The translations under genes were made by a program, and so were the position numbers. The notes below the pieces were generated by a model, which saw only the letters and a program-made list of their open reading frames with translations, ran no database searches and was not told the origin of the DNA. Below, piece by piece: positions 4,823-31,246 of a stretch of 32,000 nucleotides of DNA. Every line of letters starts with the position of its first letter. The stretch's first letter is position 1. Source of the stretch: Desulfotalea psychrophila LSv54 (GTDB lineage Bacteria; Desulfobacterota; Desulfobulbia; Desulfobulbales; Desulfocapsaceae); the NCBI RefSeq assembly GCF_000025945.1, contig NC_006138.1, forward strand, positions 510,001 through 542,000, read 5' to 3'.

Positions 4823-4826
4823 AATA

Positions 4827-7250: not shown

Positions 7251-7277
7251 ATCTTACTCCTTAGAGTGAATTTTTAA

Positions 7278-8582: not shown

Positions 8583-8586
8583 AATA

Positions 8587-9069: not shown

Positions 9070-9080
9070 ACTCTTCTCCT

Positions 9081-9137
9081 TCAATCGATAATAATTTCGA
9101 TTGAGAAATGAGATCCATCTCTCAATCGAATTTTTTA
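9081..9137. promoter_or_regulatory. Intercistronic three-arm repeat able to form mutually exclusive hairpins (between the RidA gene and dctQ)
   Basis: The arms are a1 tcaatcga (9081-9088), a2 ttcgattgaga (9096-9106) and a3 tctcaatcgaa (9120-9130). a2 pairs with a3 over 11 bp or with a1 over 8 bp. On the mRNA the a1 arm abuts the dctQ SD. The + strand reads as hairpin plus TTTTTT (9131-9136). Confidence 0.45.
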
Positions 9138-10954: not shown

Positions 10955-10956
10955 GA

Positions 10957-11244
10957 CTATTTTTCCTCCCCGGCTGCAAGGTTACGATTAACGACCATTC
11001 CCTTACGAACGGTGGTCATACAGGCCTGACGCTGGACACCATCAATTTCCATCAAACACTCAAAACAGACGCCCATTAAACAGTGAGGCGAACAGGGTTT
11101 TTTAGAGGTGGGAGAAACCTTTGAGGTTATCTCGCCAATTGCGAGCAGGGCAGCGGCCAGATTCACCTCTGCGGGAACAGAAGTGGCTTGCCCGTCCAAG
11201 ATTATTTCTACTGAATCCGATACTGATGAGTCGCGTTTAAACAT
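10957..11244 (-). CDS. Small (2Fe-2S)-binding subunit (HcnA / opine-dehydrogenase gamma-like)
   Basis: About 95 aa from the ATG at 11244, which overlaps the upstream stop as ATGTTTAA. An alternative ATG lies at 11256. Cys cluster: KKPCSPHCLMGVCFECLMEIDGVQRQAC. The longer track ORF runs into the upstream gene. Confidence 0.8.
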   Translation of the reverse strand: MFKRDSSVSDSVEIILDGQATSVPAEVNLAAALLAIGEITSKVSPTSKKPCSPHCLMGVCFECLMEIDGVQRQACMTTVRKGMVVNRNLAAGEEK

Positions 11245-13011: not shown

Positions 13012-14010
13012 TTATTTGGTAACCCGATCAAGAACGCCCTGCCCCCACTCCTGGCCCACGTCGCGAAGAATCACAGGCCAAACGGCAGACTTGGCCCTAT
13101 CCGAAAGCGCCGCAATTTCCGCCTTACTAATGGGGAGAATTACTGCACCGTAATCGGCAAGTTTCTTCTCGTTGGCTGCCTGATCTGCCTCAGCAACAGT
13201 CCAACGTCGTTCTTCAAATTGAGTTGCAACATTCTGCACCTGCCCTTGCTCTTCAACAGAGAGTTTATCAAAATCTTTCTGACTCATGATAAGATACCAC
13301 ACCTCAAAATGGGTGTTGGCAGGAAGATAATACTTGGTAACATCTCTAAATGAAGAATAATAGCCCTCGGCTCCTGAGCCAATTACACCATCAACAACAC
13401 CGGTCTGCACAGCGGTGAAGGCATCGGAAAATGGAATTGGCGTGCCAAGATAACCGCTGGTGTCTGCCAGCAATTGAAAGGTTTTCATTGGCTGAACACG
13501 AACCTTGAGCCCCTTGGACACATCCGGATTCCCGTAATCCTTCACCTCTTTGTTAAAAGAGATACCACCAAAGTAGACGGGCCAGGCGGCAATCATATGA
13601 ATGTTCTGCTCAGCATAGAGACCTTCAACAACCTTACGCAGAGGTGCGCCGGGACCATAATTATCCCGTGCCTGCCTCCAATTTTCTACGATATAAGGAA
13701 AATAGATAAGCTGGAATCTTTTATCCGCCGCAGTAGACGGTGGTTGACAGGCAAAGGAAATCGCGCCCAGGCTGACCCGCTCCTGAACAATGGTATAATC
13801 GCCAAGGGCATTGGCAGGATAAATCTTCGTTTTCAACTTGCCAGCCGAAGCCTCCTTCAGGGTATCTGAAAACCAGTGGAGATCCTTATCAATTGCTGTT
13901 CCCTGAGGTCTCACATGTGAAATTTTCATGGCTCTCGCCTGGATGCTTCCTGCCAACATAGAGACACTGGCAAGCAGAACCAGGGCACTGATAACAAAAT
14001 GTTTCTTCAC
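13012..14010 (-). CDS. TRAP transporter substrate-binding protein, DctP family (copy C, orphan)
   Basis: 332 aa. It starts at GTG in the position where A and B have ATG, with the same AAGGAG at the same spacing. Signal peptide present. No adjacent dctQ or dctM. Confidence 0.88.
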   Translation of the reverse strand: MKKHFVISALVLLASVSMLAGSIQARAMKISHVRPQGTAIDKDLHWFSDTLKEASAGKLKTKIYPANALGDYTIVQERVSLGAISFACQPPSTAADKRFQLIYFPYIVENWRQARDNYGPGAPLRKVVEGLYAEQNIHMIAAWPVYFGGISFNKEVKDYGNPDVSKGLKVRVQPMKTFQLLADTSGYLGTPIPFSDAFTAVQTGVVDGVIGSGAEGYYSSFRDVTKYYLPANTHFEVWYLIMSQKDFDKLSVEEQGQVQNVATQFEERRWTVAEADQAANEKKLADYGAVILPISKAEIAALSDRAKSAVWPVILRDVGQEWGQGVLDRVTK

Positions 14011-15996: not shown

Positions 15997-18069
15997 ATGT
16001 TTAAAAAGGCCAAATTAAAGGTCAAGATGCTCGTACCCATCTGCGGTACTGTTTTAATAGCATTTGTCATAACCATTGCCAGCATAACCAACTTAGCCTC
16101 AGAACATGCGAAAGAGAGGGCCTTAAACCTGGCCACCGAAACTGCCCATCGCTATGGAGGCGAGGTACAGAACGAAATATCAAAGGCATGGGACGCAACG
16201 ACCACCATGTCAGAAATGATAGGGGGGGCAATGAGTAGCGGCAACACAGCCAAGCGCGCCTCCGTAGTTGCAATGCTCACCAGCGTTATCAGCCAACACC
16301 AAGAGTTTTATGGTGTTTGGACAATCCTCCAACCCAATAGTTACGATGGGCCGGACAGCGAAGCCGACCCCTCCCAGCCAGGCACCGGCGAAAAGGGACA
16401 GTTCCGCCCCAATATTCACCGCTATAGCGGCCCCATCAAAACAACCCTTATCAAATACCGCCCTGAGAGCAGTGCCAAAGGCGCCTGGTACTGGATTCCC
16501 TATCGTAGCGGCAGGCCCTATATTACCCCCCCCACCGTCTACAATATAAACGGCCAGGACGTGACCATGATCTCCATCTGTGTTCCCATAATGAAAAATG
16601 GCACACCAGTGGGCGTAGTTGGCATTGACCTCGGCATGGAACGGATGCAGGAGATCGTCTCCGAGATCAGACCATTTAACACCGGTTTCGGCTACCTGCT
16701 CTATACAGACGGTACCGTTCTTGCTCACCCAGACAGTAAGGCTGTGCAGAGAAAGGTCACCGATCTCGACATCGACCAGGCAGTACTGCCGGCCATCCGT
16801 CAGGGCAGAGACTTCGTCTGGGAGGGAGAAAGTAATCGTTTCCAAGGTGAAGCCCTGTCCGTCTTCGCCCCATTTAAAATCGGTAGCAGTGACTCTCCAT
16901 GGAGTCTGGCCGTTACCATTCCCATGGACACGGTACTTGCCAATGCCCAGCAACTTCTGCGGGTAAGCATCATCATCGGCATCCTCTCCCTCACCATCCT
17001 CCTGGCCCTGGTCTACGCCATTTCGACATTTGTCATCGTCCGCCCCATCGAGATGGTTGTCAACGGCCTTAAAGATATCGCCGGCGGAGAGGGAGACCTG
17101 ACAAAACGACTCGATGCATCCACAAAGGATGAAATTGGCGAACTCTGCAGTTGGTTCAACACCTTTATAGCCGAACTGCAGAGAATTATGACAGAGGTTT
17201 CCGGCAAGTCGGCAATTCTGGGTGCCTCAGCGCAAGCACTGCAAGCTACCTCAAAAGAGATGACAGGCGACGCCAATACGACATCGGCAAAAACCGTCCA
17301 TGTATCGACTGCCATCAGAGACATGAACGGCAATATTTCCACCGTCGCAGCCGCCATGGAGCAGACATCCACCAATATTGGCCTTGTGGCCTCCGCCACA
17401 GAAGAGATGACGGCAACCATCAACGAAATCGCCAAACACTCAGAATCAGCTCGGGCAATTTCCGGCAATGCCGTCTCTAGATCGCAAAAGGCCTCGGATA
17501 AAATGGATCTGCTCGGAGGCGCCGCTCGGGATATCGACAAGGTTACCGAAACAATCACGGAGATTTCCGAACAAACCAACCTCCTGGCGCTCAACGCCAC
17601 CATTGAGGCAGCCAGAGCCGGAGAGGCAGGTAAGGGCTTTGCCGTAGTAGCTGGTGAAATCAAGGTACTCTCCCAGCAGACCGCCAATGCAACCAAGGAG
17701 ATACAAAAACGCATCGAGGGAATCCAAACAGCTACCAACGAATCCATTGAGGAGATCAACGGCGTATCCAAGGCCATCGAAGATGTCAATGACACTATCT
17801 CAACCATCGCCACCGCCGTCGAGGAACAGTCCATTGCCTCACAGGAGATCGCCGACAACATAGGTCAAGCATCTCAGGGAGTGCAGGAGGTAAACACCAA
17901 CGTAACCGAAACTGCAGGACTGGCAGACCAGGTAACCAATGACGTTGAAGAGGTAAGTGCGGCAACAACTGATATAGCGAACCTGAGTACCACGGTAACA
18001 ACCAGCGCCAATGAGTTAAACCAACTCTCCGGCGAGCTAAACGCCCTGGTTGAGCGTTTCAAGGTCTAA
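15997..18069 (+). CDS. Methyl-accepting chemotaxis protein with a periplasmic Cache-type sensor, HAMP and MA domains
   Basis: 690 aa with two transmembrane segments flanking a sensor of about 290 aa. HAMP: [22 protein letters not shown]. Signalling hairpin: [35 protein letters not shown]. Confidence 0.93.
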
Positions 18070-18844: not shown

Positions 18845-19876
18845 CTACTGCAAACCAGCAAAAAACAGGTCCCAAAAAGGATCAGAATCCGGTTCCAACA
18901 GAGGTTGGCTCTGGCCATTTTTAAGAACAGTATTCTCCTTAAGGCTAGAGTCAAATTTGCCCAAGATGTAACTATCGATACCGAGATCAGCCCAGACTCT
19001 CTGCACCTCCTGCACCTGTTCGGGTTCAACTGCCGCGAGCAATGTCCCCTCACTAATAGCCTGCCAAGGATCAAAATCCAGTTCCCGGGCAAGGGCCACA
19101 ATATCTGCCGGTATCTCCACCCCATCAAAATCAACCATAACCGGAAGACCAGAAGATGTGGACATCTCCCACAGCCCTCCCTGCACCCCTCCTTCGGTGG
19201 CATCATGCATGGCATGAACTCCACCCACCTTAAAGGCATGCAAAGCATCCTCAACAACGGTGATCTGATCCACTCGGGCACGAAGAGTAGCGAGCATCTC
19301 CTCGGAAATATTTCCCTGAAGTCGCTCATGATGAACAATGGAAAGCAGGGCAGCCGCCTCAATGCACGGCCCCTTAGTCATTAAAATAAGATCACCATCC
19401 TTGGCACCGCCGGGCGAAATCCATGCATCCTGATCCGCCGTACCCCAAACGGTAACCCCACCCACGGTCGGCACCGTCACAGCACCGTACCAGCCGGTAT
19501 GTCCCCCGACAATGGAGATCCCCAAATCTTCAGCGGCACGGGAGATAGAGCTAATAATCGTCCGAGCATCCTCCTCGGGACAACCAAGAGGCAGGAGCAG
19601 GGTATAGGTCATGAATTCTGGTTTAACCCCTGTTACCGCTATATCACTGGCCCCGATATGGACGGTAAACCAACCCATAATATCCAAAGGCAAGCCAGGA
19701 GCGGGAAAAATAGGGTCCTCGGCAATAGCCATGACCCGTCCATCGGCGGTCTGCAAAATTGCTGCATCCAGGCCAGGTCCCGGCCCCACTAACAAACTTT
19801 TACATGGTTTGCCCAATGCCCCCTGAACCAGGGCTTGCAGACGAGAGGGACTTGGTTTACCCACCAGATTACTCAT
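18845..19876 (-). CDS. AIR synthase-related (PurM/ThiL/HypE superfamily) ATP-dependent enzyme, specificity unknown
   Basis: About 343 aa from the ATG at 19876 (the track ORF begins at TTG 19882). N-domain: GPGLDAAIL...IAEDP. C-domain: HAMHDATEGG. The ATG overlaps the upstream stop as ATGAGTAA. Confidence 0.85.
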   Translation of the reverse strand: MSNLVGKPSPSRLQALVQGALGKPCKSLLVGPGPGLDAAILQTADGRVMAIAEDPIFPAPGLPLDIMGWFTVHIGASDIAVTGVKPEFMTYTLLLPLGCPEEDARTIISSISRAAEDLGISIVGGHTGWYGAVTVPTVGGVTVWGTADQDAWISPGGAKDGDLILMTKGPCIEAAALLSIVHHERLQGNISEEMLATLRARVDQITVVEDALHAFKVGGVHAMHDATEGGVQGGLWEMSTSSGLPVMVDFDGVEIPADIVALARELDFDPWQAISEGTLLAAVEPEQVQEVQRVWADLGIDSYILGKFDSSLKENTVLKNGQSQPLLEPDSDPFWDLFFAGLQ

Positions 19877-20177
19877 GCTCAAGCCCCCTTAGCAAAACAT
19901 CTTCCACATCGCTGACCTTACCCCGCAGACGGCCAGTTGCCCCTCGACGATCATCCATAGTGATGGAGGTGAGCACCCGAGGTGCCCGTTCCATCATCAA
20001 CTCATGACAACGCATGATCAAAGCCATGACCTCAGCCTGCTCCCCCTCAATAGTCGTCTGCATGGCGCCAAGCCTATAGTCCATACCAGAATCAGCGACC
20101 AACGCCACCACCGCTGCAACATGCTCCTTCAGCTCCTCACCTACCCCAAAGGGTAGAATTGTAAAACTTGCCAGCAT
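19869..20177 (-). CDS. MTH1187/YkoF-family (DUF77) small thiamine/HMP-binding-type protein
   Basis: 102 aa. MLASFTILPFG...HVAAVVALVADSGMDYRLGAMQTTIEGE fits the ferredoxin-like MTH1187 family. GGAGG SD upstream. Confidence 0.85.
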   Translation of the reverse strand: MLASFTILPFGVGEELKEHVAAVVALVADSGMDYRLGAMQTTIEGEQAEVMALIMRCHELMMERAPRVLTSITMDDRRGATGRLRGKVSDVEDVLLRGLEHE

Positions 20178-20471
20178 AGTACACCTCCATCTGAATTATC
20201 TGTTTTACAGGTTCCCCATCTACCTTCCGCCCAATCACCTCACGACTTTCCACCTAAGACCAGAGAAAACTATTCGTGAACAGCAAGGGCGTCATCCTCA
20301 ATACATCTCTAAAATTTTCCTTTCAATGTAAAAAGCAGACACCTAACCACATAACAGATTTAATATCATAACAAATAGACAGAAGACAAGCACCTCGACA
20401 TTTTACCTGTATTTAACAGGAGAGGCATGGCATTCAACTTTTCAGGGCCGTGGCACTGAGAACAATAATTC

Positions 20472-20500
20472 TTGACTTTGGTTTTACGGTCTCCTATAGG
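20472..20500 (+). promoter_or_regulatory. Candidate sigma-70 promoter of the thiM operon
   Basis: TTGACT, 17 nt, TATAGG, about 20 nt upstream of the riboswitch. Confidence 0.4.
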
Positions 20501-20518
20501 TTGAGGTGTATTATTTTT

Positions 20519-20596
20519 TTTGCAGGGGTGGCTTTAGGGCCTGAGAAGATACCCATTGAACCTGACCTGGCTAAAACCAGGGTAGGGAATTGCAGA
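20519..20596 (+). promoter_or_regulatory. TPP (THI-box) riboswitch aptamer
   Basis: GCAGGGGTGGCTTTAGGGCCTGAGAAGATACCCATTGAACCTGACCTGGCTAAAACCAGGGTAGGGAATTGCA carries the conserved GGGGUG, CUGAGA, AUACCC and ACCUGA..CUGG...CCAG.GUAGGGAA blocks, as in the E. coli thiM leader. Confidence 0.85.
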
Positions 20597-20687
20597 AATG
20601 TCCTCATTTTCATTTCTTCGCTCTATCTGCTCGCCCTCCCCCTGTTATTCTAGCGAAAGCTTTAACATTTATCCGCTGAGTAATGTT

Positions 20688-21509
20688 ATGTCGAATATTT
20701 CCCTTACGGCTGCAGAAAATCTGCAGCAAATCCGCGAAAATAAACCACTTATTCATAACATCACAAATTTTGTGGTCATGAACTACACGGCAAATGTCCT
20801 GCTGGCAACGGGTGCCTCTCCAGTTATGGCCCATGCCCAGAATGAGGTGGAGGAGATGGTCGCATTTGCCGGATCTCTGGTTCTCAACATTGGTACCCTG
20901 AGCGAAAGTTGGGTGAGCTCCATGCTTATGGCCAGCCAAAGGGCAAATACATTAAAAACACCAATCATACTCGACCCTGTTGGCTCGGGGGCAACAGCCT
21001 TTAGAACCGCCTCGGCTAAGCGCATCATCGCCGAGGCAAAGGTCAGTGTTATCCGAGGCAATGCCTCGGAAATTCTCTCCCTCGGCAGTGAGCAAAGCAA
21101 CACCCGAGGAGTTGACACAAGCCAGTCCGTCAGTGATGCAGCCCAAACCGCCTCTCTTCTGGCCCGAGAGCTGGATACTATCCTGGCAATCACAGGACCC
21201 ACCGACCTGGTTACCGATGGCAGACGAGTATTCAATGTTGATAATGGCCATCCACTCATGCCCTATGTCACAGGAACCGGTTGCTCTGCCACCGCCGTAG
21301 TCGGTGCCTTTGCCGCAGTGGACAGAGATTATCTGAGGGCAGCAACAACTGCCCTGGCATTTTTTGGCCTGGCGGGAGAAATGGCTGGCAAGGCAGCAAC
21401 TGGGCCCGGCTCCTTTATGATCCACCTGCTGGATGCTCTCTACAACATGAGCCCGGAACAGCTGGAGAAGGGCTGCCGAATTAAGGAAAGCTCAGCAACA
21501 AGATCCTGA
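20688..21509 (+). CDS. thiM: Hydroxyethylthiazole kinase
   Basis: 273 aa from the ATG at 20688 (MSNISLTAAENLQQIRENKPLIHNITNFVVMNYTANVLLA...). Typical ThiM N-terminus and length. The track ORF extends in frame to an ATG at 20598. Confidence 0.9.
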   Translation: MSNISLTAAENLQQIRENKPLIHNITNFVVMNYTANVLLATGASPVMAHAQNEVEEMVAFAGSLVLNIGTLSESWVSSMLMASQRANTLKTPIILDPVGSGATAFRTASAKRIIAEAKVSVIRGNASEILSLGSEQSNTRGVDTSQSVSDAAQTASLLARELDTILAITGPTDLVTDGRRVFNVDNGHPLMPYVTGTGCSATAVVGAFAAVDRDYLRAATTALAFFGLAGEMAGKAATGPGSFMIHLLDALYNMSPEQLEKGCRIKESSATRS

Positions 21510-21531
21510 GACTCATCAGAAAGAGAAAAGA

Positions 21532-22302
21532 ATGCAAGACCAGCACCTGACAAAGACGACAGGGCCTGAAGAGGCCCCATCAATTATTTTCGACAAGGTC
21601 TCGCTGAACATGGGGGACAGGCCTCTGTTTGACAAGCTGTCCATGACCATTGAAGGCGGGCTGTGTACCTGCATCTTAGGCCCCAGTGGTTGTGGAAAAT
21701 CAACCCTGCTCCATATGATCTCGGGGGCAACATCTCTTCCCTATGAGGGGAGCATCCAAATTGAATCCAAAAAGGCAAAAAATGACAAAATTGCCTGGAT
21801 GAGCCAAAACGATCTACTCCTCCCCTGGCTCTCCCTCTTGGAGAACATTATCCTCGGGGCAAAACTACGCAATGAAGAATCTGCCTCCCTTCGGGCCAGA
21901 GCAGGTGAACTTATGGAGGAGGCTGGTCTGGCCGGATACGAGAACGCCTTACCGGCAACTCTTTCCGGCGGCATGAGACAACGAGGCGCACTCCTGCGCA
22001 CCCTCATGGAGGAACGCCCCATACTACTCATGGACGAGCCCTTTTCAGCGCTCGACGCCCTGGCCAGAATGAAGCTGCAGAATCTGGCGACCAAGCTCAC
22101 CAGGCGGGCAACAGTTCTCCTGGTAACCCATGACCCCATGGAGGCACTGCGGATGGGTGATAGAATTCTGGTCCTCTCCAAAAGGCCATGCCGGGTCCAG
22201 AGCCTTTTCTCTCTGACAGGAATACCACCTCGAAATGTTGACGATCCGGAAATTCAGGCCCATCTCAGCACCTTGCTCAGTCAACTGATGGATCAGCGAT
22301 GA
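21532..22302 (+). CDS. ABC transporter ATP-binding protein (NitT/TauT-type; ThiZ-like)
   Basis: Walker A GPSGCGKST, signature LSGGMRQR, Walker B LLMDEPFSALD. Sits in the riboswitch-controlled operon. Confidence 0.9.
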   Translation: MQDQHLTKTTGPEEAPSIIFDKVSLNMGDRPLFDKLSMTIEGGLCTCILGPSGCGKSTLLHMISGATSLPYEGSIQIESKKAKNDKIAWMSQNDLLLPWLSLLENIILGAKLRNEESASLRARAGELMEEAGLAGYENALPATLSGGMRQRGALLRTLMEERPILLMDEPFSALDALARMKLQNLATKLTRRATVLLVTHDPMEALRMGDRILVLSKRPCRVQSLFSLTGIPPRNVDDPEIQAHLSTLLSQLMDQR

Positions 22303-23045
22303 AGACATTCAGACTCATAGTGCTTGGCACCGGCCTCTTACTGCTCTGGCAACTGGTGGTTATTATCACCGATGCTCCCCACTATATCCTGCCCGGGCCA
22401 CTACCCGTATTCCATGCCATCATCGACCATTGGTCCACCCTGATGGGACATCTGCAAACCACCTTAACGGAAATAATCTTCGGCATTTTACTGGGTACCG
22501 CCCTCGGGATAAGCGCTGCCCTGACCATGACCTTCTCCCCACTGCTCAAGCGTTGGCTCTTGCCAGTGCTGGTGATCAGTCAAGCCATTCCTGTTTTTGC
22601 CCTGGCCCCAATTCTCGTTCTTTGGTTTGGCTATGGCATGGCCTCTAAAATTGCCATGGCGGTACTCATTATCTTTTTCCCTGTAACTTCGTCATTTTAC
22701 TACGGAATGCAGCGGACAGAGCCACAACTTCTGGAACTGGCAAGAATCATGAATGGAAGCCCCATGCGGATAATGCGCTATATCGTCATTCCAGCGGCAA
22801 TGCCGGCATTCGCCTCGGGTCTTCGACTTGCTGCTGCTGTAGCCCCAATCGGGGCAGTAATTGGAGAATGGGTTGGTTCAAGTTCCGGACTCGGATTTTA
22901 TATGATCCACGCCAACGCCCGCATGCAAATCGATGTCATGTTTGCTGCCCTAACAATTTTATCTGTTGTTTCATTACTTCTCTATTTCTTAGTTGATTTT
23001 GCAATGGAGAGGCTTATTTACTGGGAACCTTATCAAGGATGTTAA
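22299..23045 (+). CDS. ABC transporter permease (ThiX-like)
   Basis: 248 aa with about 6 transmembrane segments. ATGA start/stop overlap with the ATPase gene. Confidence 0.9.
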   Translation: MKTFRLIVLGTGLLLLWQLVVIITDAPHYILPGPLPVFHAIIDHWSTLMGHLQTTLTEIIFGILLGTALGISAALTMTFSPLLKRWLLPVLVISQAIPVFALAPILVLWFGYGMASKIAMAVLIIFFPVTSSFYYGMQRTEPQLLELARIMNGSPMRIMRYIVIPAAMPAFASGLRLAAAVAPIGAVIGEWVGSSSGLGFYMIHANARMQIDVMFAALTILSVVSLLLYFLVDFAMERLIYWEPYQGC

Positions 23046-23047
23046 AA

Positions 23048-24001
23048 ATGAAAAAAGTACGTATGTTAATAATGGCCGCTTTAGTAATAGCCATATGTGG
23101 AACGAGCACATCGGCTATGGCCCGGGAGAAGGTAACACTCCTCCTCGATTGGTTTGTTAATCCCGATCACGCCCCCATATTTATAGCTCTGGAAAAGGGC
23201 TATTTTGCCGACCATGGCCTGGATGTGGAGATAATCGCCCCCTCCAACCCCAATGACCCACCCAAGTTAGTTGCCGCTGGCAAAGCCGATATCGCAGTCT
23301 CCTACCAAAATCAGCATCAGATGCAAATTGATCAGGGACTGCCCCTAGTGAGGATTGCCACCCTGATTGCCACCCCTCTTAACTCACTGGTGGTACTTGC
23401 CGATAGCCCGATTAAGACTATTGCTGACCTTAAGGGGAAAACCATTGGTTACTCCGTTGGTGGCTTTGAAACCATGCTCCTGGATGTAATGCTTAAGAAG
23501 TCAGGACTCAGCCTCTCCGACGTTACGCTCGTCAATGTAAATTTCTCCCTCTCCCCAGCCCTCTTTACCGGACAGGTCGATGCTGTAATTGGAGCCTTCA
23601 GAAACTTTGAGCTCAACCAGATGGATATCGAAAAACGTCCCGGCAGGGCATTCTATGTAGAAGAACATGGGGTACCGGCCTATGATGAGTTAATCTTAAT
23701 AGCCAATAGGGATAAGATCGGCGAGGCAAAACTTCGCAGCTTTGTCGATGCCCTTGAAGAGGGAGTGCAGTATCTGATCAACCATCCTGATGAGAGTTGG
23801 AAGCTCTTTATCAAGGGAGAACGAAAAACCCTCGATGACGAGTTAAACCGACGCGCTTGGAGAGATACCCTGCCACGTTTCGCCCTGCGCCCCGGGGCCC
23901 TGGATCAGGAACGCTATCGCCGGGTTGCAGCGTTTTTGCAAAAGCAGGGTACGGTGAAGAGTGTGCCACCGCTTGAGACATGGGCCGTGGAGCTACCATA
24001 G
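23048..24001 (+). CDS. ABC transporter substrate-binding protein, NMT1/THI5-like (ThiY-like pyrimidine-precursor binding)
   Basis: Start chosen at 23048 (MKKVRMLIMAAL..., signal peptide, AAGGA 9 nt upstream); an alternative lies at 23039. LLLDWFVNPDHAPIFIALEKGYF is typical of the NMT1/ThiY family. Confidence 0.88.
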   Translation: MKKVRMLIMAALVIAICGTSTSAMAREKVTLLLDWFVNPDHAPIFIALEKGYFADHGLDVEIIAPSNPNDPPKLVAAGKADIAVSYQNQHQMQIDQGLPLVRIATLIATPLNSLVVLADSPIKTIADLKGKTIGYSVGGFETMLLDVMLKKSGLSLSDVTLVNVNFSLSPALFTGQVDAVIGAFRNFELNQMDIEKRPGRAFYVEEHGVPAYDELILIANRDKIGEAKLRSFVDALEEGVQYLINHPDESWKLFIKGERKTLDDELNRRAWRDTLPRFALRPGALDQERYRRVAAFLQKQGTVKSVPPLETWAVELP

Positions 24002-24092: not shown

Positions 24093-24902
24093 TTAATCTT
24101 CGGAAGAATCTGAATCAACCCCATTCAGCTTCCAATCATAGTCTAAAAAGTCTATCTCAATCCTATCGGCCAGCAGCTCATGGCGCTCGGCCTCACTGAG
24201 CCCCAGAGATTTGCTGTAAAGGGCTAAAAACTGGGACAGAGTTCTTGCCCCACGCCAGCCAGCCCCAAAATCCTGACCATACCACTTAAAGATACTGGAA
24301 ACCTGTAGCTTTCCCCCACTGAGCCTGTTTCTCCTCCTGTCCGCAAGAAACATGGTGGTTGCCTCCTGCAACTGCCCCTCCAGTCTATCCTTCTGATATG
24401 CATGATCTTTCAGGGCTGGGCAACCAATGCTAGCGCAGTTTAGGGCAAAATGTATCCTGGGATCCCCGTATCGCCCGGAACCGCGGATGAGACCGTGCTC
24501 AAGATCATCCAGGGAGCGTTTTTGTCCCAACAGGGAAAAGAACTTCTTTTTCCACGGCGATTGAAAAAATGAGCCCAGCTCTTTGATTGATTGCAGATTG
24601 GAATACCTGCTAAGAATCAACTCAACCGTCCAGGCGTTATAGGCGTTAATGAGAAAGGCAAGTTGTCCAGCCTTTGTCCAGCTATCAAACTGGCCACGGC
24701 TGACCTGTGACAGCTGATCGAGATAGGCAGAGAGTAGGGGCCTCTCCCTGGCCATAGCCGCATAATCCACTTTGGTTTCCTGTCCACCCTGATAGACCCG
24801 AACATGCTCCTGCAAGAGAGAATCCCAGGGGCCATGATCAAAGGCTACGGCCTCAACAACGGGGCAAACAAGGATAAACAGGACAAACAAAAGAGAGCGC
24901 AT
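24093..24902 (-). CDS. Secreted DUF547 domain protein
   Basis: ATG at 24902 with GGAGG upstream (the track ORF starts at TTG 24917). Signal peptide MRSLLFVLFILVCPVVEA. DUF547 signature: AFLINAYNAWTV...SLDDLEHGLIRG...DPRIHFALNCASIGCPAL. Confidence 0.85.
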   Translation of the reverse strand: MRSLLFVLFILVCPVVEAVAFDHGPWDSLLQEHVRVYQGGQETKVDYAAMARERPLLSAYLDQLSQVSRGQFDSWTKAGQLAFLINAYNAWTVELILSRYSNLQSIKELGSFFQSPWKKKFFSLLGQKRSLDDLEHGLIRGSGRYGDPRIHFALNCASIGCPALKDHAYQKDRLEGQLQEATTMFLADRRRNRLSGGKLQVSSIFKWYGQDFGAGWRGARTLSQFLALYSKSLGLSEAERHELLADRIEIDFLDYDWKLNGVDSDSSED

Positions 24903-27052
24903 CACAACCTCCTCCAACTGTGGTACCTTTCTGCCCAGGCTAGCAATCTCCTAGGCAAATGTTTTCGCTTCCATCCTCCTGCCGCATATTTATTAGCCTC
25001 GGCAAGGGTCGGATAGGTATGAATAGTGGACAGGATCTTATTGAGTCCCAGACCGTGTTTCATGGCCAGGACAAATTCTGCCAGAAGATCGCCCGCATGC
25101 TCACCGACAATGGTTACCCCCAGGATACGATCCTTATTGGGCACGGTGAGTATCTTGATAAAGCCCTCTCTTACCCCGTCGGTGATGGCCCGATCAAGAT
25201 CATCCAGATCGTAACGAGTAACCTCCACGTCAACACCACGCTCAGCCGCCTCCTGTTCATTGAGACCGACCCGAGCAACTTCAGGATCAACGAAGGTCGT
25301 CCAAGGAATGACAGAGTAATCTACCTTAAATTTCTTAATCCCACCAAAGAGGGCATTGACCACCGCATACCAGGCCTGATGGGCGGCGGTATGGGTAAAC
25401 TGGTAGGGACCGGCCACATCACCTGCGGCAAAAATATTAGGATAGAGGGTCTGTAAATATTCGTTAGTCAGCACCGTTCGCTTCACAGGAATACCAAGCT
25501 CCTCCAGACCGTAACCCTTGAGCCTGGCAACCCGACCGACTGCACAGATAAGGGCATCAAATGCCAGGCGTAGCTCCTGCCCCTCATGCTCAACGACAAT
25601 GTATTTTTCCTCACCAGCCCTTTCGCAGCGCAGGGCTGTATGCCCAGTGAGAACATGGACACCATCTGCCCCAAGAGATGCCTCAACAATGGCTGCGGCA
25701 TCTGCATCTTCGCGGGGCAACAACCGAGCCCCCCTCTGTATCTGCCAAACCTCAGAGCCCAAGCGGGCAAGGGCCTGAGACAACTCACAACCAATTGGCC
25801 CGCCCCCCAGTACCAGCAAACGCCGCGGTGCTTCATCCAAATTGGCAAAGGCATTCCAGAGGGTCTCATTGGTGAGATAATCAACCGCATCAAGCCCAGG
25901 CAGGGGTGGAATAAATGGCCCTGCCCCTGTGGCAATAATAACGGCACGTGATGTCAGTCGCCGGGTTTCGCCACTCTTGAGTTTCACCTCCACGGTCCAG
26001 GGATCCAACAGCCTGGCGTAACCACAGAGGACCTCTACCCCGAGATCCGTATAGCGTTCAACGCTATCATGGGGCTCAATCGTAGCAATAATCCGATGAA
26101 CCCTCGCCATCACCCGGCGAAAAGAGAAGCTCAGTTCAACGGCATCAAGTCCATACTTATCTCCATTGCGAATATGATGGGCAACTTTCGCACTTTTTAT
26201 CAAGGCCTTGCTTGGCACACAACCATAGTTGAGACAGTCTCCCCCCATCTCTGCCGCTTCAACAAGAGTCACCTTTGCCTTAAGGGTAGTGGCAATATAG
26301 GCGCTTACCAAGCCGGCAGCCCCGGCACCAATGACAATAAGATTACGATCAAAGCGAGCAGGTCTCAACCATTTTGCATAGAGCCGCCGCCCCTTAAACC
26401 AGGCTATGCCCCTTTTACAGATCAATGGAAAGATGCCTAAAAGAGCAAAGGAGAACAACAGCCTCGTCGACAGTATCCCCCCAAGGCTCTCTACTTGAGC
26501 CAGTTGGGTGCCTGCATTAACATAAACAATAGTCCCCACCAACATACCAAGCTGACTTACCCAGGCAAATGTCCGCAGCCGAATCGAGGTGAGACCCATG
26601 AGCAGGTTAATGACAAAAAAGGGAAAAATGGGGACCAGGCGCAGGGTGAAGAGATAGAAGGCACCCTCCTCCTCCATCCCCCTGTTTACGGCATGAAGGC
26701 GATCCTGGAAACGGCTTTGCACGATTTCACGAAGAAGAAAACGAGAGAGAAGAAAGGCCAGGCTGGCACCGAGAGTTGAGGCAAAGGAGACAATCAGCAC
26801 CCCCCAGATAAGACCGAATATGGCTCCTGCCGCCACCGTTAGCACCCCCGCTCCCGGCAGGGAGAGCGAGGCAACCACTGCATAGAGACCAAAAAAACTC
26901 AGCCCGGCCAGAATGGGCTCAGCGTTCCGCCAACTCTCCAGCTGAACCTGCCTGGTCTTAATAGCCTGCAAAGAGAGATAGCTATCAAGGCCGAAAAAAT
27001 AATAGGCCGAGACCAGAGCAATGACAGTGCCAACAATCAGATATTTTTTCAT
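24902..27052 (-). CDS. Fusion of a DedA/TVP38 (VTT) membrane domain with a class I pyridine nucleotide-disulfide oxidoreductase (lipoamide dehydrogenase / mercuric reductase-like)
   Basis: 716 aa. The N-terminal ~230 aa are polytopic and carry LRLVPIFPFFVINLLMG. The remainder has [10 protein letters not shown], the redox-active GGDCLNYGCVPSK motif and a C-terminal interface HTYPTLAE. Its stop overlaps the DUF547 ATG as TGATG. Confidence 0.9.
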   Translation of the reverse strand: MKKYLIVGTVIALVSAYYFFGLDSYLSLQAIKTRQVQLESWRNAEPILAGLSFFGLYAVVASLSLPGAGVLTVAAGAIFGLIWGVLIVSFASTLGASLAFLLSRFLLREIVQSRFQDRLHAVNRGMEEEGAFYLFTLRLVPIFPFFVINLLMGLTSIRLRTFAWVSQLGMLVGTIVYVNAGTQLAQVESLGGILSTRLLFSFALLGIFPLICKRGIAWFKGRRLYAKWLRPARFDRNLIVIGAGAAGLVSAYIATTLKAKVTLVEAAEMGGDCLNYGCVPSKALIKSAKVAHHIRNGDKYGLDAVELSFSFRRVMARVHRIIATIEPHDSVERYTDLGVEVLCGYARLLDPWTVEVKLKSGETRRLTSRAVIIATGAGPFIPPLPGLDAVDYLTNETLWNAFANLDEAPRRLLVLGGGPIGCELSQALARLGSEVWQIQRGARLLPREDADAAAIVEASLGADGVHVLTGHTALRCERAGEEKYIVVEHEGQELRLAFDALICAVGRVARLKGYGLEELGIPVKRTVLTNEYLQTLYPNIFAAGDVAGPYQFTHTAAHQAWYAVVNALFGGIKKFKVDYSVIPWTTFVDPEVARVGLNEQEAAERGVDVEVTRYDLDDLDRAITDGVREGFIKILTVPNKDRILGVTIVGEHAGDLLAEFVLAMKHGLGLNKILSTIHTYPTLAEANKYAAGGWKRKHLPRRLLAWAERYHSWRRL

Positions 27053-27087
27053 AAGCTTTTCCGCCTGATACAGGTGAGAGAGGACGA

Positions 27088-28386
27088 CTATGCCATAGAG
27101 ACGCCGGTGATTCTCGAAAGTTCGGAATCAAGTGAAACAAGGTCGTCCCTGTTGAGATCATGAATTGACCGTTTACCACAGAGACGGGCAATGGCCTTTA
27201 CCTCCTCGGTGGCTGCACTAATAAAATTAGCCACCCGCATACCCCCATCATGAATGTCAAGGCCCTCTGATAGCGACTGCCCGCCCTGAGCTACCGACAG
27301 AGAGGAAGGGCCAAGCGCTATCTTCAAAGCTCCACTCATATAGACACCATCGGCCCCGAGGGCAATCGCCTTGGCAATATCACCCGAATGGCGAATGCCA
27401 CCGGCGGCAATGAGAGTGACCCGCTCGCGCAGACCTGTTAGATCCAGAAAATCACCGACACGAGGCAGAGAGTAGATGAGGGGCAGACCGACATGCTCCC
27501 CCACCGTCACTGAAACAGTATCGAGACAGCCCTCGCCACCATCAATAACCAGCACATCCGGGATACAATCCTGACTAAAAATAGCCTCAAGATCATTCTG
27601 CAAATGCCCACCGGCAAGCTTTAAAGAGATCGGTTTACCATCCAGCAAGCGCCGTAACTCCAGAATTTTTTTCGAGAGATCTTTGGCGCTTTTAATATCC
27701 TGGCGCATTGCCGGTGACTGAGGCATCTTTCCCTGACCAAGTCGACTCACAGCAGCAATTTCTGCAATAACCTTTCCCCTTCGGACCTTACCGCCAATGC
27801 CGAATTTTACTCCCTGAGAAATTTTTATCTCAACCATATCTGCCCCCCGCAGACTCTCCTCACTGACCCCAAACCGATCGGTGGGAAACTGTACGGTGAC
27901 CCGGTTTGTCAGGGCCATCTCCTCATCCCCCATCCCCCCATCACCTGTATGCACAATGGTTCCCGCCAAAAATGAGCCAAGGGCAAGAGCCATGCTCGCC
28001 TCCTTACTGAGGGGACCACAGGACATGGCTGCATTCAAAATCGGAGTCTGGAGGAAAACAGGCTGCCTAGCCCTTTTGCCAAGAACAACTCTTGAGTCAA
28101 TCTCCACCTCATGACCTAGGGGAAAGTTATTTACCTGAGCAGGTAGGAAGATCAGGTCATCCATCCCCAAAAATGTCCTTGCCGTTACCCTACCCTCTTG
28201 GTGGTAGGACCCCATTTCTGCCATGGACCTGATTATCGGCCTGCTGTTCAGATCCCATCTGCCAAAATTATCCGCGTTAGTATCGTGAATAAAGATCCGG
28301 GCAGATGCCATACAGACTGGGCAAAAGCAAAAATCAATATCCCCCGCATGTAGATAGCCACAAACCGGGCAGAGATAGTTAGTCAT
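27088..28386 (-). CDS. Glutamate synthase (GltS) FMN-domain-like protein with an N-terminal CxxC...CxxC zinc ribbon; degenerate paralogue lacking the [3Fe-4S] and GGTGA motifs
   Basis: 432 aa and collinear with 29803-31131. It reads GGEGCLDTVS where the paralogue has GSEGGTGAAP. It reads LGPSSLSVAQGGQSLSEGLD where the paralogue has IGCTYLRQCHLDNCPYGIATQ. Confidence 0.88.
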   Translation of the reverse strand: MTNYLCPVCGYLHAGDIDFCFCPVCMASARIFIHDTNADNFGRWDLNSRPIIRSMAEMGSYHQEGRVTARTFLGMDDLIFLPAQVNNFPLGHEVEIDSRVVLGKRARQPVFLQTPILNAAMSCGPLSKEASMALALGSFLAGTIVHTGDGGMGDEEMALTNRVTVQFPTDRFGVSEESLRGADMVEIKISQGVKFGIGGKVRRGKVIAEIAAVSRLGQGKMPQSPAMRQDIKSAKDLSKKILELRRLLDGKPISLKLAGGHLQNDLEAIFSQDCIPDVLVIDGGEGCLDTVSVTVGEHVGLPLIYSLPRVGDFLDLTGLRERVTLIAAGGIRHSGDIAKAIALGADGVYMSGALKIALGPSSLSVAQGGQSLSEGLDIHDGGMRVANFISAATEEVKAIARLCGKRSIHDLNRDDLVSLDSELSRITGVSMA

Positions 28387-28430
28387 ACATGACCCCTCTA
28401 AAGAAAAATGAAGATTAATAAAGGTTGTCT

Positions 28431-28497
28431 CTACAGTATCTCTATTTTAGGACTCAGTTACAAGCGGGGTACAGGATGGATGGGAATTTAAGGTGAG
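28431..28497 (-). promoter_or_regulatory. Conserved leader element upstream of GltS-like B
   Basis: 67-nt block matching 31180-31246. The distal 43 nt (28455-28497) are identical in both copies. The block ends 45 nt upstream of the ATG. Confidence 0.5.
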
Positions 28498-28914
28498 GAA
28501 GCGAGATAGAGGCAAGGCCACGGATTATGTAGCGGTGAAGTAAGTAGCAATAGGAGGTGACAGCGGGATTGCCTTCATATATACCTATTATATTAAAAAT
28601 TTAAGCTACAGGGTAGCTGAAGCAAGGATGAATGAGAGACCACATAAGTGTGTATTTAATGGAAACCGCCGTGACAAGCGGGAAAAGATTATATGGAACA
28701 ATGCCCTTTGGACCTGTGGAGAATATTATGCAAACGGTCGCTGCAAGTCTGTAAAAAAGATAAAAGAGATGACTGAATGCAGACCTAGGAAAGAAGGGGC
28801 CTAACAGGTTAGTCCCTAACCTGTGGCTGCAGGGCAGGCTGGAACGATCAAAAGGGCAAGCCCTGCAAGGCCCTGCTGACAATCCACTCAATTCTCTCTC
28901 TTAAAAGCCTCAGC

Positions 28915-29793
28915 CTACTCCACATTTTCTCTTTCGCTTAAAAAGCTGATGATATCTGCTTGCTCCTCCTCATCAAGGAAGTCGGGCTCATCCATAATGA
29001 CAATCATCCGCTCGACGGTGACCGTCCACTCCTTTGCACTTTTTTTTGCCTCGAAAACCCTATCCAGATTATGGCAGAGAGTGCATTTACGGGAGACTAG
29101 GCTCCTGCCCATCTCATTTTCCGGATCGACCTGCCTCCTGCCCTGCCTCTCCTCCTGCTGTTTAAGCAGATAGTTAAGCACCTGCTTCAAATCAAAGCCT
29201 GTTATATTTGGTGAGTCCAGTTGAGCCATCCTATTCACAGTCACAACCCAATCATCCTCGCTCTTATAGGCCCGATATACCCGTTCAAGGCTGTGGCATT
29301 TATTACACTTGCCGGTCATAAGCGCCTTGCCGAGTTCAATATCCAGCACATCACTGTCCTGAACCGAGAGAGTGGTATAGACAAAATCTGAGCGATGCAG
29401 AATATAATACCCAGCTGTAATTCCGCTAAGAACAAAGGAGAAGGTAAAAATAGTAATCCCCAGCAGGGGCAGCTTTTCACTGCAATGAGGAAGTCGCCTC
29501 ACCACCAAGACCTTGACTAATAAGAGGGGGATAAGAGCAAGAGCAAGGGCTATATGAAAGACGGCTCGGGCACTCAACTCTTGCTGCAAACCTGCCGCCT
29601 TCTCGATCATAAAGAAGAGAATAAGGGCAAAGAGGGCAATAAACAGATAGCCGAGAATCCTATGGGCAGATATCAATCCGGATTTTCCACCATTATCTCT
29701 TATCCTACCGGTTATCTCCAGCATGAGAAAAAGAGTTATACCAGCGACAAGGACAAAGAGCAGGGCCAGAACAGATGCAATGAGAGGATGCAT
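28915..29793 (-). CDS. Membrane protein: four transmembrane helices fused to a periplasmic dihaem cytochrome c domain
   Basis: 292 aa. Two CxxCH motifs (CNKCH, CTLCH) sit in a duplicated module C..CH..-RV-x7-9-W.VTV.RM. This resembles the haem-binding domain of the quinohemoprotein amine dehydrogenase alpha subunit. AAGGAG SD; the ATG lies 10 nt after the upstream stop. Confidence 0.85.
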   Translation of the reverse strand: MHPLIASVLALLFVLVAGITLFLMLEITGRIRDNGGKSGLISAHRILGYLFIALFALILFFMIEKAAGLQQELSARAVFHIALALALIPLLLVKVLVVRRLPHCSEKLPLLGITIFTFSFVLSGITAGYYILHRSDFVYTTLSVQDSDVLDIELGKALMTGKCNKCHSLERVYRAYKSEDDWVVTVNRMAQLDSPNITGFDLKQVLNYLLKQQEERQGRRQVDPENEMGRSLVSRKCTLCHNLDRVFEAKKSAKEWTVTVERMIVIMDEPDFLDEEEQADIISFLSERENVE

Positions 29794-29802
29794 GGAGTCT
29801 CC

Positions 29803-31131
29803 TTATAGCATGGGTATACCGGTGATTCTTGACAGTTCAGGATCAAGCGAGCCAAGGTCATCCCTATTGAGGGCATGGATTGATGATTTGCCACAGATAC
29901 GGGCAATGGACTTCACCTCCTCGGTGGCAGCGCCGATAAAATTGGCCACCCGCTGCCCCGCAGCCTGCACATCAAGCCGTTTCCGCAGACTGCCATCCTG
30001 AGTTGCTATACCGTAGGGGCAGTTGTCCAGATGACACTGGCGCAGGTAGGTACAGCCAATCGCTATCTTCAGGGCCCCACCCATATAAACCCCATCGGCA
30101 CCAAGGGCAATCGCCTTGGCTATATCTCCCGGATGACGAATGCCGCCGGCTGCAATCAGGGTGACCCGATCGCGTAGACCATTCCGATCCAAAAACTCAG
30201 CTATGCGGGGCAGGGAGTAAATAAGTGGCATGCCGACATGATCCTTGACCGTGACCGGGGCAGCACCTGTGCCCCCCTCACTCCCATCAATAACCAACAC
30301 ATCGGGAATATTTTCCTGGCTGAAGATAGCGGCAAGATCATTCTGCAGATGGCCACCGACAAACTTCAGAGAGATCGGTTTTCCACCTATCAGGCTACGT
30401 AGCTCCAGGATCTTGGCAGAGAGGTCTTTTACGTCTCTGATATCCTCATGTACAGCCGGCGACTGAGCCATCTTGCCCGGCGCTATCTGACGAACGGCGG
30501 CAATTTCTGCTGTGACCTTTGCCCCCGGCAATTTACCGCCCATGCCGGGTTTTGCTCCCTGAGAGATCTTAATTTCGATCATATCTGCGAGCTGCAACCT
30601 CTCCTCGCTGACACCGAAGCGACCGGTGGCATACTGCAGAGTAATACGGTCTGCCAACGCTCTCTCCTCATCCAGCATGCCGCCCTCACCGCTATTGGCA
30701 ATGGTACCGGCCAGAGATGAACCAAGGGCAAGCGCCATCTTGGCCTCTTTACTGAGGGCACCATAGGACATTGCTGCATTTAAAATCGGGGTCTGGAGGA
30801 GAACAGGCTGCCCGGCTACCTTGCCGAGGACAAGTGTCGAGTCCACCTCCACCTCATCACCCAGGGGCAGGGTCTCTAACTGAGCAGGGAGAAAGATCAG
30901 GTCGTCCATCCCCAGAAATTTTCTGGTCGTGCCCTTTCCCTCCAGATAATAGGTGCCCGTTTCTGCCATGGATCTGATCATCAGCCTGGTGTTTAGATCC
31001 CATCTGCCAAAATTTTCCGCGCCACTGTCGTGAATAAAGATAGTGGCAGGTGAATTACAGACTGGACAGAGATGAAAATCAATGGGCCCCGAATGCAGAT
31101 AGCCGCAGACCGGACAACGCTGGCTTGTCAT
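29803..31131 (-). CDS. Glutamate synthase FMN-domain-like flavoprotein with an N-terminal zinc ribbon and an intact C-x5-C-x4-C [3Fe-4S] motif
   Basis: The track ORF starts at GTG 31167. The ATG at 31131 (MTSQRCPVCGY...) matches the paralogue's start. Motifs present: QGAKPGMGGKLPG, SPAVHEDI, GGTGAAP, AAGGIRHPGD and GCTYLRQCHLDNCPYGIATQ. Confidence 0.9.
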   Translation of the reverse strand: MTSQRCPVCGYLHSGPIDFHLCPVCNSPATIFIHDSGAENFGRWDLNTRLMIRSMAETGTYYLEGKGTTRKFLGMDDLIFLPAQLETLPLGDEVEVDSTLVLGKVAGQPVLLQTPILNAAMSYGALSKEAKMALALGSSLAGTIANSGEGGMLDEERALADRITLQYATGRFGVSEERLQLADMIEIKISQGAKPGMGGKLPGAKVTAEIAAVRQIAPGKMAQSPAVHEDIRDVKDLSAKILELRSLIGGKPISLKFVGGHLQNDLAAIFSQENIPDVLVIDGSEGGTGAAPVTVKDHVGMPLIYSLPRIAEFLDRNGLRDRVTLIAAGGIRHPGDIAKAIALGADGVYMGGALKIAIGCTYLRQCHLDNCPYGIATQDGSLRKRLDVQAAGQRVANFIGAATEEVKSIARICGKSSIHALNRDDLGSLDPELSRITGIPML

Positions 31132-31179
31132 AGATGCCCCCCTGGAATAGATGTCAATTTTTAACACTTACCTCAACAT

Positions 31180-31246
31180 CTACAGTATCGCTATTTTGAG
31201 GCGCAGTTACAAGCGGGGTACAGGATGGATGGGAATTTAAGGTGAG
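31180..31246 (-). promoter_or_regulatory. Conserved leader element upstream of GltS-like A
   Basis: Partner of 28431-28497. The identical 43-mer spans 31204-31246. The block ends 49 nt upstream of the ATG at 31131. Confidence 0.5.

Follow-up and report, generated by a model that had tools for sequence, protein, structure and literature searches.

Two independently conserved redox gene pairs juxtaposed behind copies of a promoter-like element in Desulfotalea psychrophila LSv54

A stretch of 32,000 nucleotides from the genome of Desulfotalea psychrophila LSv54 (NCBI RefSeq assembly GCF_000025945.1, contig NC_006138.1, positions 510,001 to 542,000) was analysed, and is referred to below as the window; all D. 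psychrophila positions follow its numbering. Towards its right end lies a cluster of five genes (Table 1) that encode, read along the minus strand, a GltS-like flavin mononucleotide (FMN)/iron-sulfur protein (GltS-A), a transmembrane (TM) dihaem cytochrome, a degenerate paralogue of the first protein (GltS-B), a fusion of a DedA(VTT) membrane domain with a pyridine-nucleotide disulfide oxidoreductase (DedA-PNDR), and a DUF547 protein. The genes of the cluster are DP0503-DP0508 in RefSeq, where DP0508 is gltS-A and the products of DP0507, DP0505, DP0504 and DP0503 match the cytochrome, GltS-B, the DedA fusion and the DUF547 protein exactly. No mention of these DP loci was found in the literature, and no report on bacterial function was found for DUF6529, for DUF547 together with DedA, or for a glutamate synthase of cable bacteria.

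A preliminary description of this DNA had reported five same-strand genes, and all five minus-strand open reading frames (ORFs) are present at the coordinates it gave. The intergenic distances of 528 and 35 nt and the 1-nt overlap that it listed were reproduced, the overlap provided that the DUF547 gene starts at the ATG at 24902 (the RefSeq start), whereas the first gap measures 9 nt and not 10. Pfam agrees with its domain calls for all five proteins. The cluster indeed contains no transporter, regulator or classical substrate-defining enzyme, and annotation is confined to generic families, with no NCBIfam model reaching its cut-off for any of the five proteins. It had further been proposed that the five products together shuttle reducing equivalents across the membrane to a periplasmic target. 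This is plausible for the gltS-cytochrome pair; a five-component pathway is not supported, as the five genes do not co-occur elsewhere. The five-gene cluster is a lineage-specific mosaic held together by a duplicated putative promoter, and only the pair of flavoprotein and membrane cytochrome looks like an undescribed trans-membrane electron device.

Table 1. Features of the D. psychrophila locus and positions of the extracytoplasmic function (ECF)-type motif at loci of the genome survey (L numbers; positions are those of each locus).
Feature	Sequence	Positions	Strand	Size or remark
Promoter/operator element, copy A	window	31181-31246	-	~50 nt upstream of the gltS-A start codon
gltS-A (DP0508)	window	29803-31131 (RefSeq start); longest ORF to 31167	-	442 aa from the RefSeq start
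Cytochrome (DP0507)	window	28915-29793	-	292 aa
Spacer between the two units	window	28387-28914	-	528 nt
DP0506, annotated ORF in the spacer	window	28601-28891	-	96 aa; between the cytochrome gene and copy B
Promoter/operator element, copy B	window	28432-28497	-	~50 nt upstream of the gltS-B start codon
gltS-B (DP0505)	window	27088-28386	-	432 codons
DedA(VTT)-PNDR fusion (DP0504)	window	24902-27052	-	
DUF547 protein (DP0503)	window	24093-24902	-	
ECF-type motif	L003	84-109		
ECF-type motif	L004	7547-7572		
ECF-type motif	L005	84-109		
ECF-type motif	L021	6444-6469		
ECF-type motif	L024	11515-11540	-	
ECF-type motif	L053	90-115		
ECF-type motif	L164	5430-5455		
ECF-type motif	L026	2560-2585		
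ECF-type motif	L097	3303-3328 and 7192-7217		

A scan of one genome per species in GTDB with an alignment of cytochromes gave 79 loci, which were then searched with the five window proteins, and all neighbouring ORFs were clustered. Scanning with DedA-PNDR gave 84 loci, and three loci were obtained for gltS. Gene-neighbourhood conservation had been put forward as a check on the cluster, and no other locus in this collection has the combination. DedA-PNDR is present at none of the approximately 26 other gltS-cytochrome loci, DUF547 at only one of them (L026), and the cytochrome at none of the 84 DedA-PNDR loci. A gltS-like match near DedA-PNDR in locus L139 was discounted, since its identity is 36% and it lies on the other strand at a distance of 4 kb. 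The chromosome of Desulfomarina profundi has both groups: P460-gltS-cytochrome-ECF sigma-anti-sigma is located at 2.95 Mb, DedA-PNDR-DUF547 at 4.04 Mb. This separation of more than 1 Mb, together with the scans, indicates that the D. psychrophila cluster comprises two independently conserved pairs that were juxtaposed in one lineage.

The same distribution bears on a single pathway, in which GltS-A, GltS-B and DedA-PNDR would all feed the cytochrome, and possibly the DedA domain, and by this route the exported Cys-motif protein DUF547. The common strand and the tight junctions would be expected of such a pathway; the loci that carry one pair without the other, and the distance between the pairs in D. 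profundi, would not, and we regard it as quite improbable. His/Met c-type haems are normally far too oxidising for disulfide reduction, and the potential of the c-haems would thus also speak against it.

The gltS-like gene and the gene for the four-TM dihaem cytochrome form a strongly conserved pair. By tblastn, 23 of the 79 loci have one gltS orthologue immediately before the cytochrome gene on the same strand; a strict count of ORFs gives 19 of the 72 loci having enough upstream sequence. Of these 19 gaps, 14 measure 9-37 nt, three 122-200 nt and two, both from Electrothrix, 654-780 nt. In the reverse look-up, all three gltS orthologues (from D. profundi, an Aminicenantes genome and a JGI contig) immediately precede a cytochrome of 288-292 amino acids. 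The pair is thus known from about 26 other loci in Desulfobulbales (cable bacteria included), Desulfobacterales, SEEP-SRB2 and Aminicenantes, and its named hosts are Desulfobulbaceae metagenome-assembled genomes, Desulfocapsa, Electrothrix, Desulfobacula, Desulfotignum, SEEP-SRB2 and other Desulfobacterales.

The order in the operon of close relatives is P460, gltS, cytochrome, an ECF sigma factor of the TIGR02943 family and a zf-HC2 anti-sigma factor. An exact TGTAAG-N16-CGAC motif is found upstream of the P460 gene in seven loci; overall there are 11 matches in 2.03 Mb, as compared with 3.9 expected, and most of them sit before P460. The presence of P460, ECF sigma and anti-sigma genes suggests a role for the operon in envelope, oxidant or nitrogen-oxide stress. 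At the D. psychrophila locus there is no P460, sigma factor or anti-sigma factor gene and no such motif; the window as a whole has no exact match and a single one-mismatch match, at chance level, inside the gene for a methyl-accepting chemotaxis protein (MCP). At locus L166, a gene for an LTXXQ (Spy/CpxP-type periplasmic stress) protein follows just downstream of the gltS-cytochrome pair (8539-9093) and an ECF sigma factor is encoded a few kb upstream, a further hint of envelope stress.

Genes for amino-acid enzymes, namely a pyridoxal-phosphate (PLP)-dependent decarboxylase, an ATP-grasp enzyme and aminotransferases, recur near the pair, which hints at an amino or 2-oxo acid as its substrate. 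In Desulfotignum (L026, 2641-10861) and a related deltaproteobacterium (L024, 3677-10867), gltS and the cytochrome gene end a longer operon with genes for the PLP-dependent decarboxylase, two unknown proteins, the ATP-grasp enzyme and an MFS transporter, which looks like a pathway for a small, amino-acid-derived molecule. The pair in cable bacteria (L006-L012, L066 and L069; Electrothrix and relatives) has an extended cytochrome of ~450-520 aa, and the aligned members P0013 and P0029 each have four CXXCH motifs. At most of these loci a gene for a RACo-like [2Fe-2S]/ASKHA ATPase lies immediately upstream of gltS, and L011 and L069 have a second, tandem cytochrome paralogue.

GltS-A (PF01645, E = 5e-113) consists of an N-terminal CxxC...CxxC Cys4 rubredoxin-like ribbon (RUBY_RBDX, 26.1 bits in Pfam), whose metal is probably iron, and an FMN TIM-barrel with a CX5CX4C [3Fe-4S] motif (C372, C378 and C383). 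It can be aligned with residues 866-1165 of the GltS large chain 7mfm, including the cluster loop. Of the 135 columns without variation among the other orthologues, it deviates at only 2, and the Cys4 ribbon is retained in nearly all gltS orthologues displayed.

GltS-B (PF01645, E = 2e-65) shares 68% amino acid identity with GltS-A and retains both the Cys4 ribbon and the barrel. It had been described as a motif-less paralogue, correctly so, as CX5CX4C is absent from this copy: C372 is replaced by P and the other two cysteines are deleted. Moreover, GGTGA is changed to GCLDT, and G299/T300, K143 and K308 are lost. Altogether GltS-B breaks 27 of the 133 columns invariant in 21 orthologues, as compared with 0-7 in true orthologues. 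In a neighbour-joining tree it forms a sister pair with GltS-A within the D. psychrophila lineage, its branch being over three times the length of that of GltS-A, with a non-synonymous divergence (dN) of 0.15 against 0.04-0.05. The ratio of non-synonymous to synonymous change (omega) on this branch is ~0.25, and the ORF is intact at a synonymous divergence (dS) of ~0.9. GltS-B is a lineage-specific duplicate under purifying selection. It is probably a maintained non-catalytic paralogue rather than a neutral pseudogene, non-catalytic because the [3Fe-4S] cysteines and several catalytic-loop residues have been lost. Without the cluster needed for electron transfer it would also fit poorly as a donor in a single pathway.

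It might be argued instead that gltS-B is a decaying pseudogene and that DedA-PNDR and DUF547 merely lie downstream of it, with no functional or regulatory link. The lost invariant residues, all cluster cysteines among them, are compatible with this adjacency by accident, and so are the restriction of the five-gene arrangement to the D. psychrophila genome and the other recent duplications in the window (TRAP DctPQM, 84-96% amino acid identity). An ORF of 432 codons that has stayed open over such a synonymous distance with an omega far below 1, and that still specifies the Cys4 ribbon and 106 of the 133 invariant columns, does not resemble a decaying gene, and accidental adjacency is judged improbable. 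The duplicated TRAP transporter genes lie at 2492-5357, 6252-9084 and 13012-14010 and comprise three DctP (84-86% amino acid identity), two DctM (96%) and two DctQ (95%) copies. They show this region of the genome to be prone to segmental duplication, consistent with the duplication of gltS.

The two copies of the duplicated segment, 31246-29819 and 28497-27104, share 74% nucleotide identity, and the first 66 nt of the segment constitute the element given as copies A and B in Table 1. Copy A is composed of a 35-nt invariant upstream block, TTGTAA (31212-31207), a 17-nt spacer and GATACT (31189-31184); in copy B, TTGTAA is at 28463-28458 and GATACT at 28440-28435. The copies are identical at 60 of 66 nt and at 43 of 43 in the core, which makes the element the best-conserved stretch of the whole duplication, and of the six substitutions all but one lie in the 17-nt spacer that separates TTGTAA from GATACT. 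By comparison, only 11 of the next 30 nt beside the core and 53% of four-fold degenerate sites are identical. Such a difference between the core and neutral sites requires selection on copy B as well, which is hard to reconcile with accidental adjacency. Two elements occur in the window, as compared with 0.00 expected from shuffled sequences.

We read the element as a candidate promoter of the sigma-70-like type, preceded by an operator or activator site of 35 nt and kept by selection in both copies. An RNA leader or riboswitch was rejected, as there was no Rfam match and the fold z-scores were 0.00 and 0.02. A sigma-54 promoter was likewise rejected since no GG-N10-GC could be read in the element, though a sigma-54 activator is encoded at 499-2391. 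Gene conversion as the source of the identity is at variance with the divergence of the adjacent 30 nt and with a coding region that is 70-80% identical.

The 528-nt spacer had been described as a leader that carries the duplicated element. The element is there, and since the spacer thus holds a second promoter copy, the cluster most likely consists of two transcription units, gltS-A-cytochrome and gltS-B-DedA-PNDR-DUF547. These are probably co-regulated in D. psychrophila, because the promoter core is identical in both copies. The same element on both halves could be cited for a single pathway; it would imply co-regulation rather than one pathway. Terminator-like hairpins are present in the spacer at 28681-28666 and 28618-28604, and a weak consensus scan found no more sites than in shuffled sequences. 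For the annotated DP0506, none of the 166 loci contains a homologue, and it is probably spurious, not a gene. No remnants of P460, DUF4079, ECF sigma or anti-sigma genes were found in the spacer.

The second pair consists of DP0504 and DP0503. DP0504, named bifunctional TVP38/TMEM64 family protein in RefSeq, joins a COG0398-type DedA/VTT membrane domain to a class-I pyridine-nucleotide disulfide oxidoreductase with FAD and NAD(P)H domains (Pfam PF09335 VTT, 89 bits against a cut-off of 33.9, and Pyr_redox_2, Pyr_redox and Pyr_redox_dim). It has the redox-active motif GGDCLNYGC and a C-terminal HTYPTLAE (HxxPTLxE), and falls below the cut-offs for MerA, lipoamide dehydrogenase, glutathione reductase and every other named equivalog. 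MerA in particular was dismissed on a score of 365 bits against a TIGR02053 cut-off of 454 and on the lack of an HMA domain and of any cysteine in the last 60 residues. Homologues of 68-76% identity occur in Desulfobulbales, Burkholderiales, Gallionella and Pseudomonadales.

Among 69 homologues the only invariant cysteines are C273 and C278 (CxxxxC), and the DedA domain has no conserved cysteine. Hence, a DsbD-like thiol relay to the exported DUF547 protein is not supported, which is another point against a single pathway. DP0503 (PF04784, E = 2e-26) has a signal-peptide-like N-terminus, as have 19 homologues, and the invariant motif H151-x-A-x-N-C156-A-S-x-x-C161-P, whose NCASxxCP part is unchanged in 14-19 homologues; a search of PDB sequences with the DUF547 profile found no solved relative.

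DUF547 directly follows DedA-PNDR in 16 of the 77 loci with enough downstream sequence. Other recurrent neighbours of DedA-PNDR are an ABC transporter (~20 loci), a CDP-alcohol phosphatidyltransferase (22), ArsS (10), an ArsM-like methyltransferase (9), and arsenosugar glycosyltransferases of the TIGR04282 and TIGR04283 families. In Eoetvoesiella caeni (L081, 5012-10269) the order is ArsS (TIGR04167, 461 bits), DedA-PNDR, DUF547, TIGR04283 and TIGR04282. These neighbourhoods hint at a role of DedA-PNDR in organoarsenical or head-group lipid metabolism. DedA-PNDR, in many cases together with DUF547, also lies in or next to arsenosugar genes at L097, L103, L121, L126, L128, L132, L143, L146 and L161, and in marine contigs it adjoins the CDP-alcohol phosphatidyltransferase and ABC transporter genes.

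The cytochrome DP0507 is predicted to have four TM helices followed by two periplasmic class-I c-haem domains, with the haem motifs C163xxC166H167 (with M189) and C237xxC240H241 (with M263); both methionines are invariant in 55 homologues. Pfam matches are PF09098 and PF10643, along with DUF6529 for the TM part. In an AlphaFold2 model (pLDDT 83.5) the helices span residues 3-29, 38-68, 75-100 and 102-136. When the positive-inside rule is applied to them, the basic loops 30-37 and 99-101 place both termini, and hence the haem domains, outside the cytoplasm, in agreement with the predicted membrane-spanning cytochrome with periplasmic haems of the preliminary description.

A profile search of the PDB matched the haem domains only, to the dihaem domain of quinohemoprotein amine dehydrogenase (QH-AmDH), PscC and SorB. 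The TM part has no Pfam, PDB-sequence or fold relative among known haem-b TM families, and Foldseek of the model against the PDB returned nothing below E = 0.1. Residues H44, M62, H80, K94 and R99 of the bundle are invariant or near-invariant; conservation of M24 is confined to Desulfobacterota. In the model the former five residues are at matching depths on adjacent helices: M62 and H80 lie some 5-6 residues in from the periplasmic end of helix 2 and helix 3, respectively, and H44 is six residues into helix 2 from its cytoplasmic start. The TM domain probably carries a cofactor of its own, for which M62/H80 and H44 are candidate haem ligands.

A survey of architectures in 1.8 billion representative proteins found this TM domain together with 0, 1, 2, 3 or 4 CXXCH motifs. 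In Acidobacteria a fifth TM helix connects it with FAD_binding_6, NAD_binding_1 and Fer2 domains, in proteins with c-haems (~720 aa) as well as without (523 aa, P0391). Such a fusion is a candidate for electron transfer from NAD(P)H to the periplasm by one polypeptide, and the tethering of an NAD(P)H-flavin-[2Fe-2S] reductase to the bundle would be hard to understand unless the bundle accepts electrons from the cytoplasmic side. The fusions occur in Bryobacterales and relatives (L036, 9911-12097; P0391, P0402, P0407, P0413, P0467, P0470 and P0507).

The cytochrome could alternatively be of the quinol:cytochrome c type, an analogue of NapC/CymA that exchanges electrons with the quinone pool, with GltS-A merely co-expressed. 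There is no proven haem-b motif, the TM domain is without a solved relative, and many family members lack a gltS neighbour and have different partners, such as the periplasmic multihaem protein of Electronema, all of which such a function would accommodate. It would not account for the gltS-cytochrome junctions of 9-37 nt that prevail in distant lineages, or for fusion of the TM domain to cytoplasmic FNR and ferredoxin domains even where any c-haem is missing, and we think it unlikely.

We propose that electrons flow outward from GltS-A through the cytochrome. FMN and [3Fe-4S] centres are low-potential, and His/Met c-haems are normally high-potential carriers; this difference, together with analogy, is the reason for the direction chosen. 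GltS-A, with FMN, [3Fe-4S] cluster and Cys4 ribbon, would oxidise a small substrate in the cytoplasm, for which an amino or 2-oxo acid is most likely, and electrons would pass from the substrate to FMN, then to the [3Fe-4S] cluster, possibly with the Cys4 centre, to the TM cofactor, to the two c-haems and finally to a periplasmic acceptor. DedA-PNDR and DUF547 form a separate pair. In D. psychrophila an old segmental duplication has placed a copy of gltS and its promoter before DedA-PNDR and DUF547; this copy, gltS-B, has since lost its cluster and catalytic loops and has yet been maintained by selection. As the promoter/operator stayed identical, both units would answer to the same regulator.

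That the locus is a composite of two elsewhere independent units, co-regulated via the duplicated promoter, is the reading we favour and hold to be probable; our confidence in the proposed electron path is lower. The gltS-cytochrome unit is undescribed, within a known class of transmembrane electron-transfer modules. A wider interpretation is offered tentatively and is, on balance, doubtful: the pair would be an undescribed ECF-controlled electron conduit with a new haem-binding four-helix family (DUF6529-like) as its membrane domain; in sulfate reducers and cable bacteria it would link cytoplasmic amino/2-oxo-acid redox chemistry to P460-type proteins and high-potential c-haems of the periplasm, and the promoter duplication in D. 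psychrophila would have recruited DedA-reductase and DUF547 into the same stress regulon.

Several observations weigh against the reading that we favour. About two-thirds of the cytochrome-family loci have no gltS, so the pairing is clade-specific. The argument for haem b in the TM domain consists of conserved His and Met residues only. The duplicated element was not found in the upstream regions of orthologous loci, and as a promoter it matches the consensus at only 8 of 12 positions, under the threshold of the scan; it could instead be an ECF-type promoter, as TGTAA is also present in the relatives' motif. At L026 a DUF547 gene (44% identity along its full length) belongs to the same operon as gltS and the cytochrome gene, the order along the strand being ECF motif, small ORF, DUF547, PLP decarboxylase, two unknowns, ATP-grasp, MFS, gltS and cytochrome. 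At L097, DedA-PNDR is behind the same ECF sigma/anti-sigma family and motif (motif, ECF sigma, ZAS anti-sigma, ArsS, DedA-PNDR, and the motif again before a bufferin-like operon).

These two loci also count in favour of a single pathway. A closer functional tie between the pairs is a lead only, being drawn from one locus each. In different bacteria, both modules may be part of one type of ECF stress regulon, which would explain why selection kept a common promoter in the composite locus of D. psychrophila.

The remainder of the window (499-2391, 9524-12358, 15997-18069 and 18845-24001) appears unrelated to the cluster. It encodes the sigma-54 activator, a dCache chemoreceptor, ThiL-like and ThiM proteins, opine/sarcosine-oxidase-like flavoproteins (Pyr_redox_2 with BFD and SO_alpha_A3, plus DAO), and an ABC transporter with an NMT1/THI5-type binding protein.

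Although very common, stand-alone GltS-like FMN/FeS proteins lack an assigned function, and the conserved, translationally coupled cytochrome partner offers them a testable role, namely electron exchange with the periplasm. The Electrothrix pair, with its four-haem cytochrome and RACo-like neighbour, bears on the routes of electrons between cytoplasm and periplasm in cable bacteria. The 4-TM domain, with its 0-4 c-haems or FNR/ferredoxin fusions, would be a new family of transmembrane redox domains. For the widespread DedA-disulfide reductase fusion, the links to DUF547 and to arsenosugar and lipid genes are a first functional lead. More generally, genes arrayed neatly on one strand can form a recent mosaic that a duplicated promoter holds together, and not an ancestral operon.

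GltS-A aligns across the whole FMN barrel of the glutamate synthase alpha subunit (PF01645; PDB 7mfm, 1ea0 and 1ofd) and shares with it the CX5CX4C cluster loop and the QGAKPG..GG..LPG motif, whereas GltS-B shares the barrel only. In contrast to glutamate synthase, GltS-A has no glutaminase, central or beta-helix domain, no beta subunit and no NAD(P)H domain; it has the extra N-terminal Cys4 ribbon, and its obligate neighbour is a membrane cytochrome. As judged by its score of 221 bits against the glutamate synthase equivalog model NF008730, with a cut-off of 1047, GltS-A is not a glutamate synthase.

The architecture of DP0504 is exactly that of the COG0398 (TVP38/TMEM64-type) DedA-PNDR proteins, reported as the commonest fusion of COG0398 DedA proteins with no function given in the one paper found to mention it (Todor et al. 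2023, PMC10127716); the DUF547 partner and the arsenosugar, CDP-alcohol transferase and ABC-transporter neighbourhoods are not described there. DP0504 and DP0503 resemble DsbD/CcdA in that an NAD(P)H-dependent disulfide reductase in the cytoplasm is accompanied by an exported Cys-motif protein, but the TM cysteine pair that defines DsbD/CcdA is absent from the DedA domain.

The two haem domains of DP0507 are His/Met class-I c domains like those of the QH-AmDH alpha subunit, cytochrome c-551 (PscC) and SorB. Unlike these, they are attached to a conserved 4-TM bundle and have a cytoplasmic enzyme as their partner, and no amine dehydrogenase, sulfite dehydrogenase or reaction-centre genes are near DP0507. 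In its logic, with a cytoplasmic flavo-FeS donor, a TM section and a periplasmic haem, the pair is like NOX/FRE ferric reductases, MsrQ-Fre and Hmc/Tmc/Qrc, a likeness that is literal in the Acidobacterial homologues fused to FNR-like and [2Fe-2S] domains. It differs from them in that the DUF6529-like 4-TM domain has no sequence or fold kinship with theirs, the candidate ligands are His/Met and not bis-His, and the putative donor is a GltS-type FMN protein.

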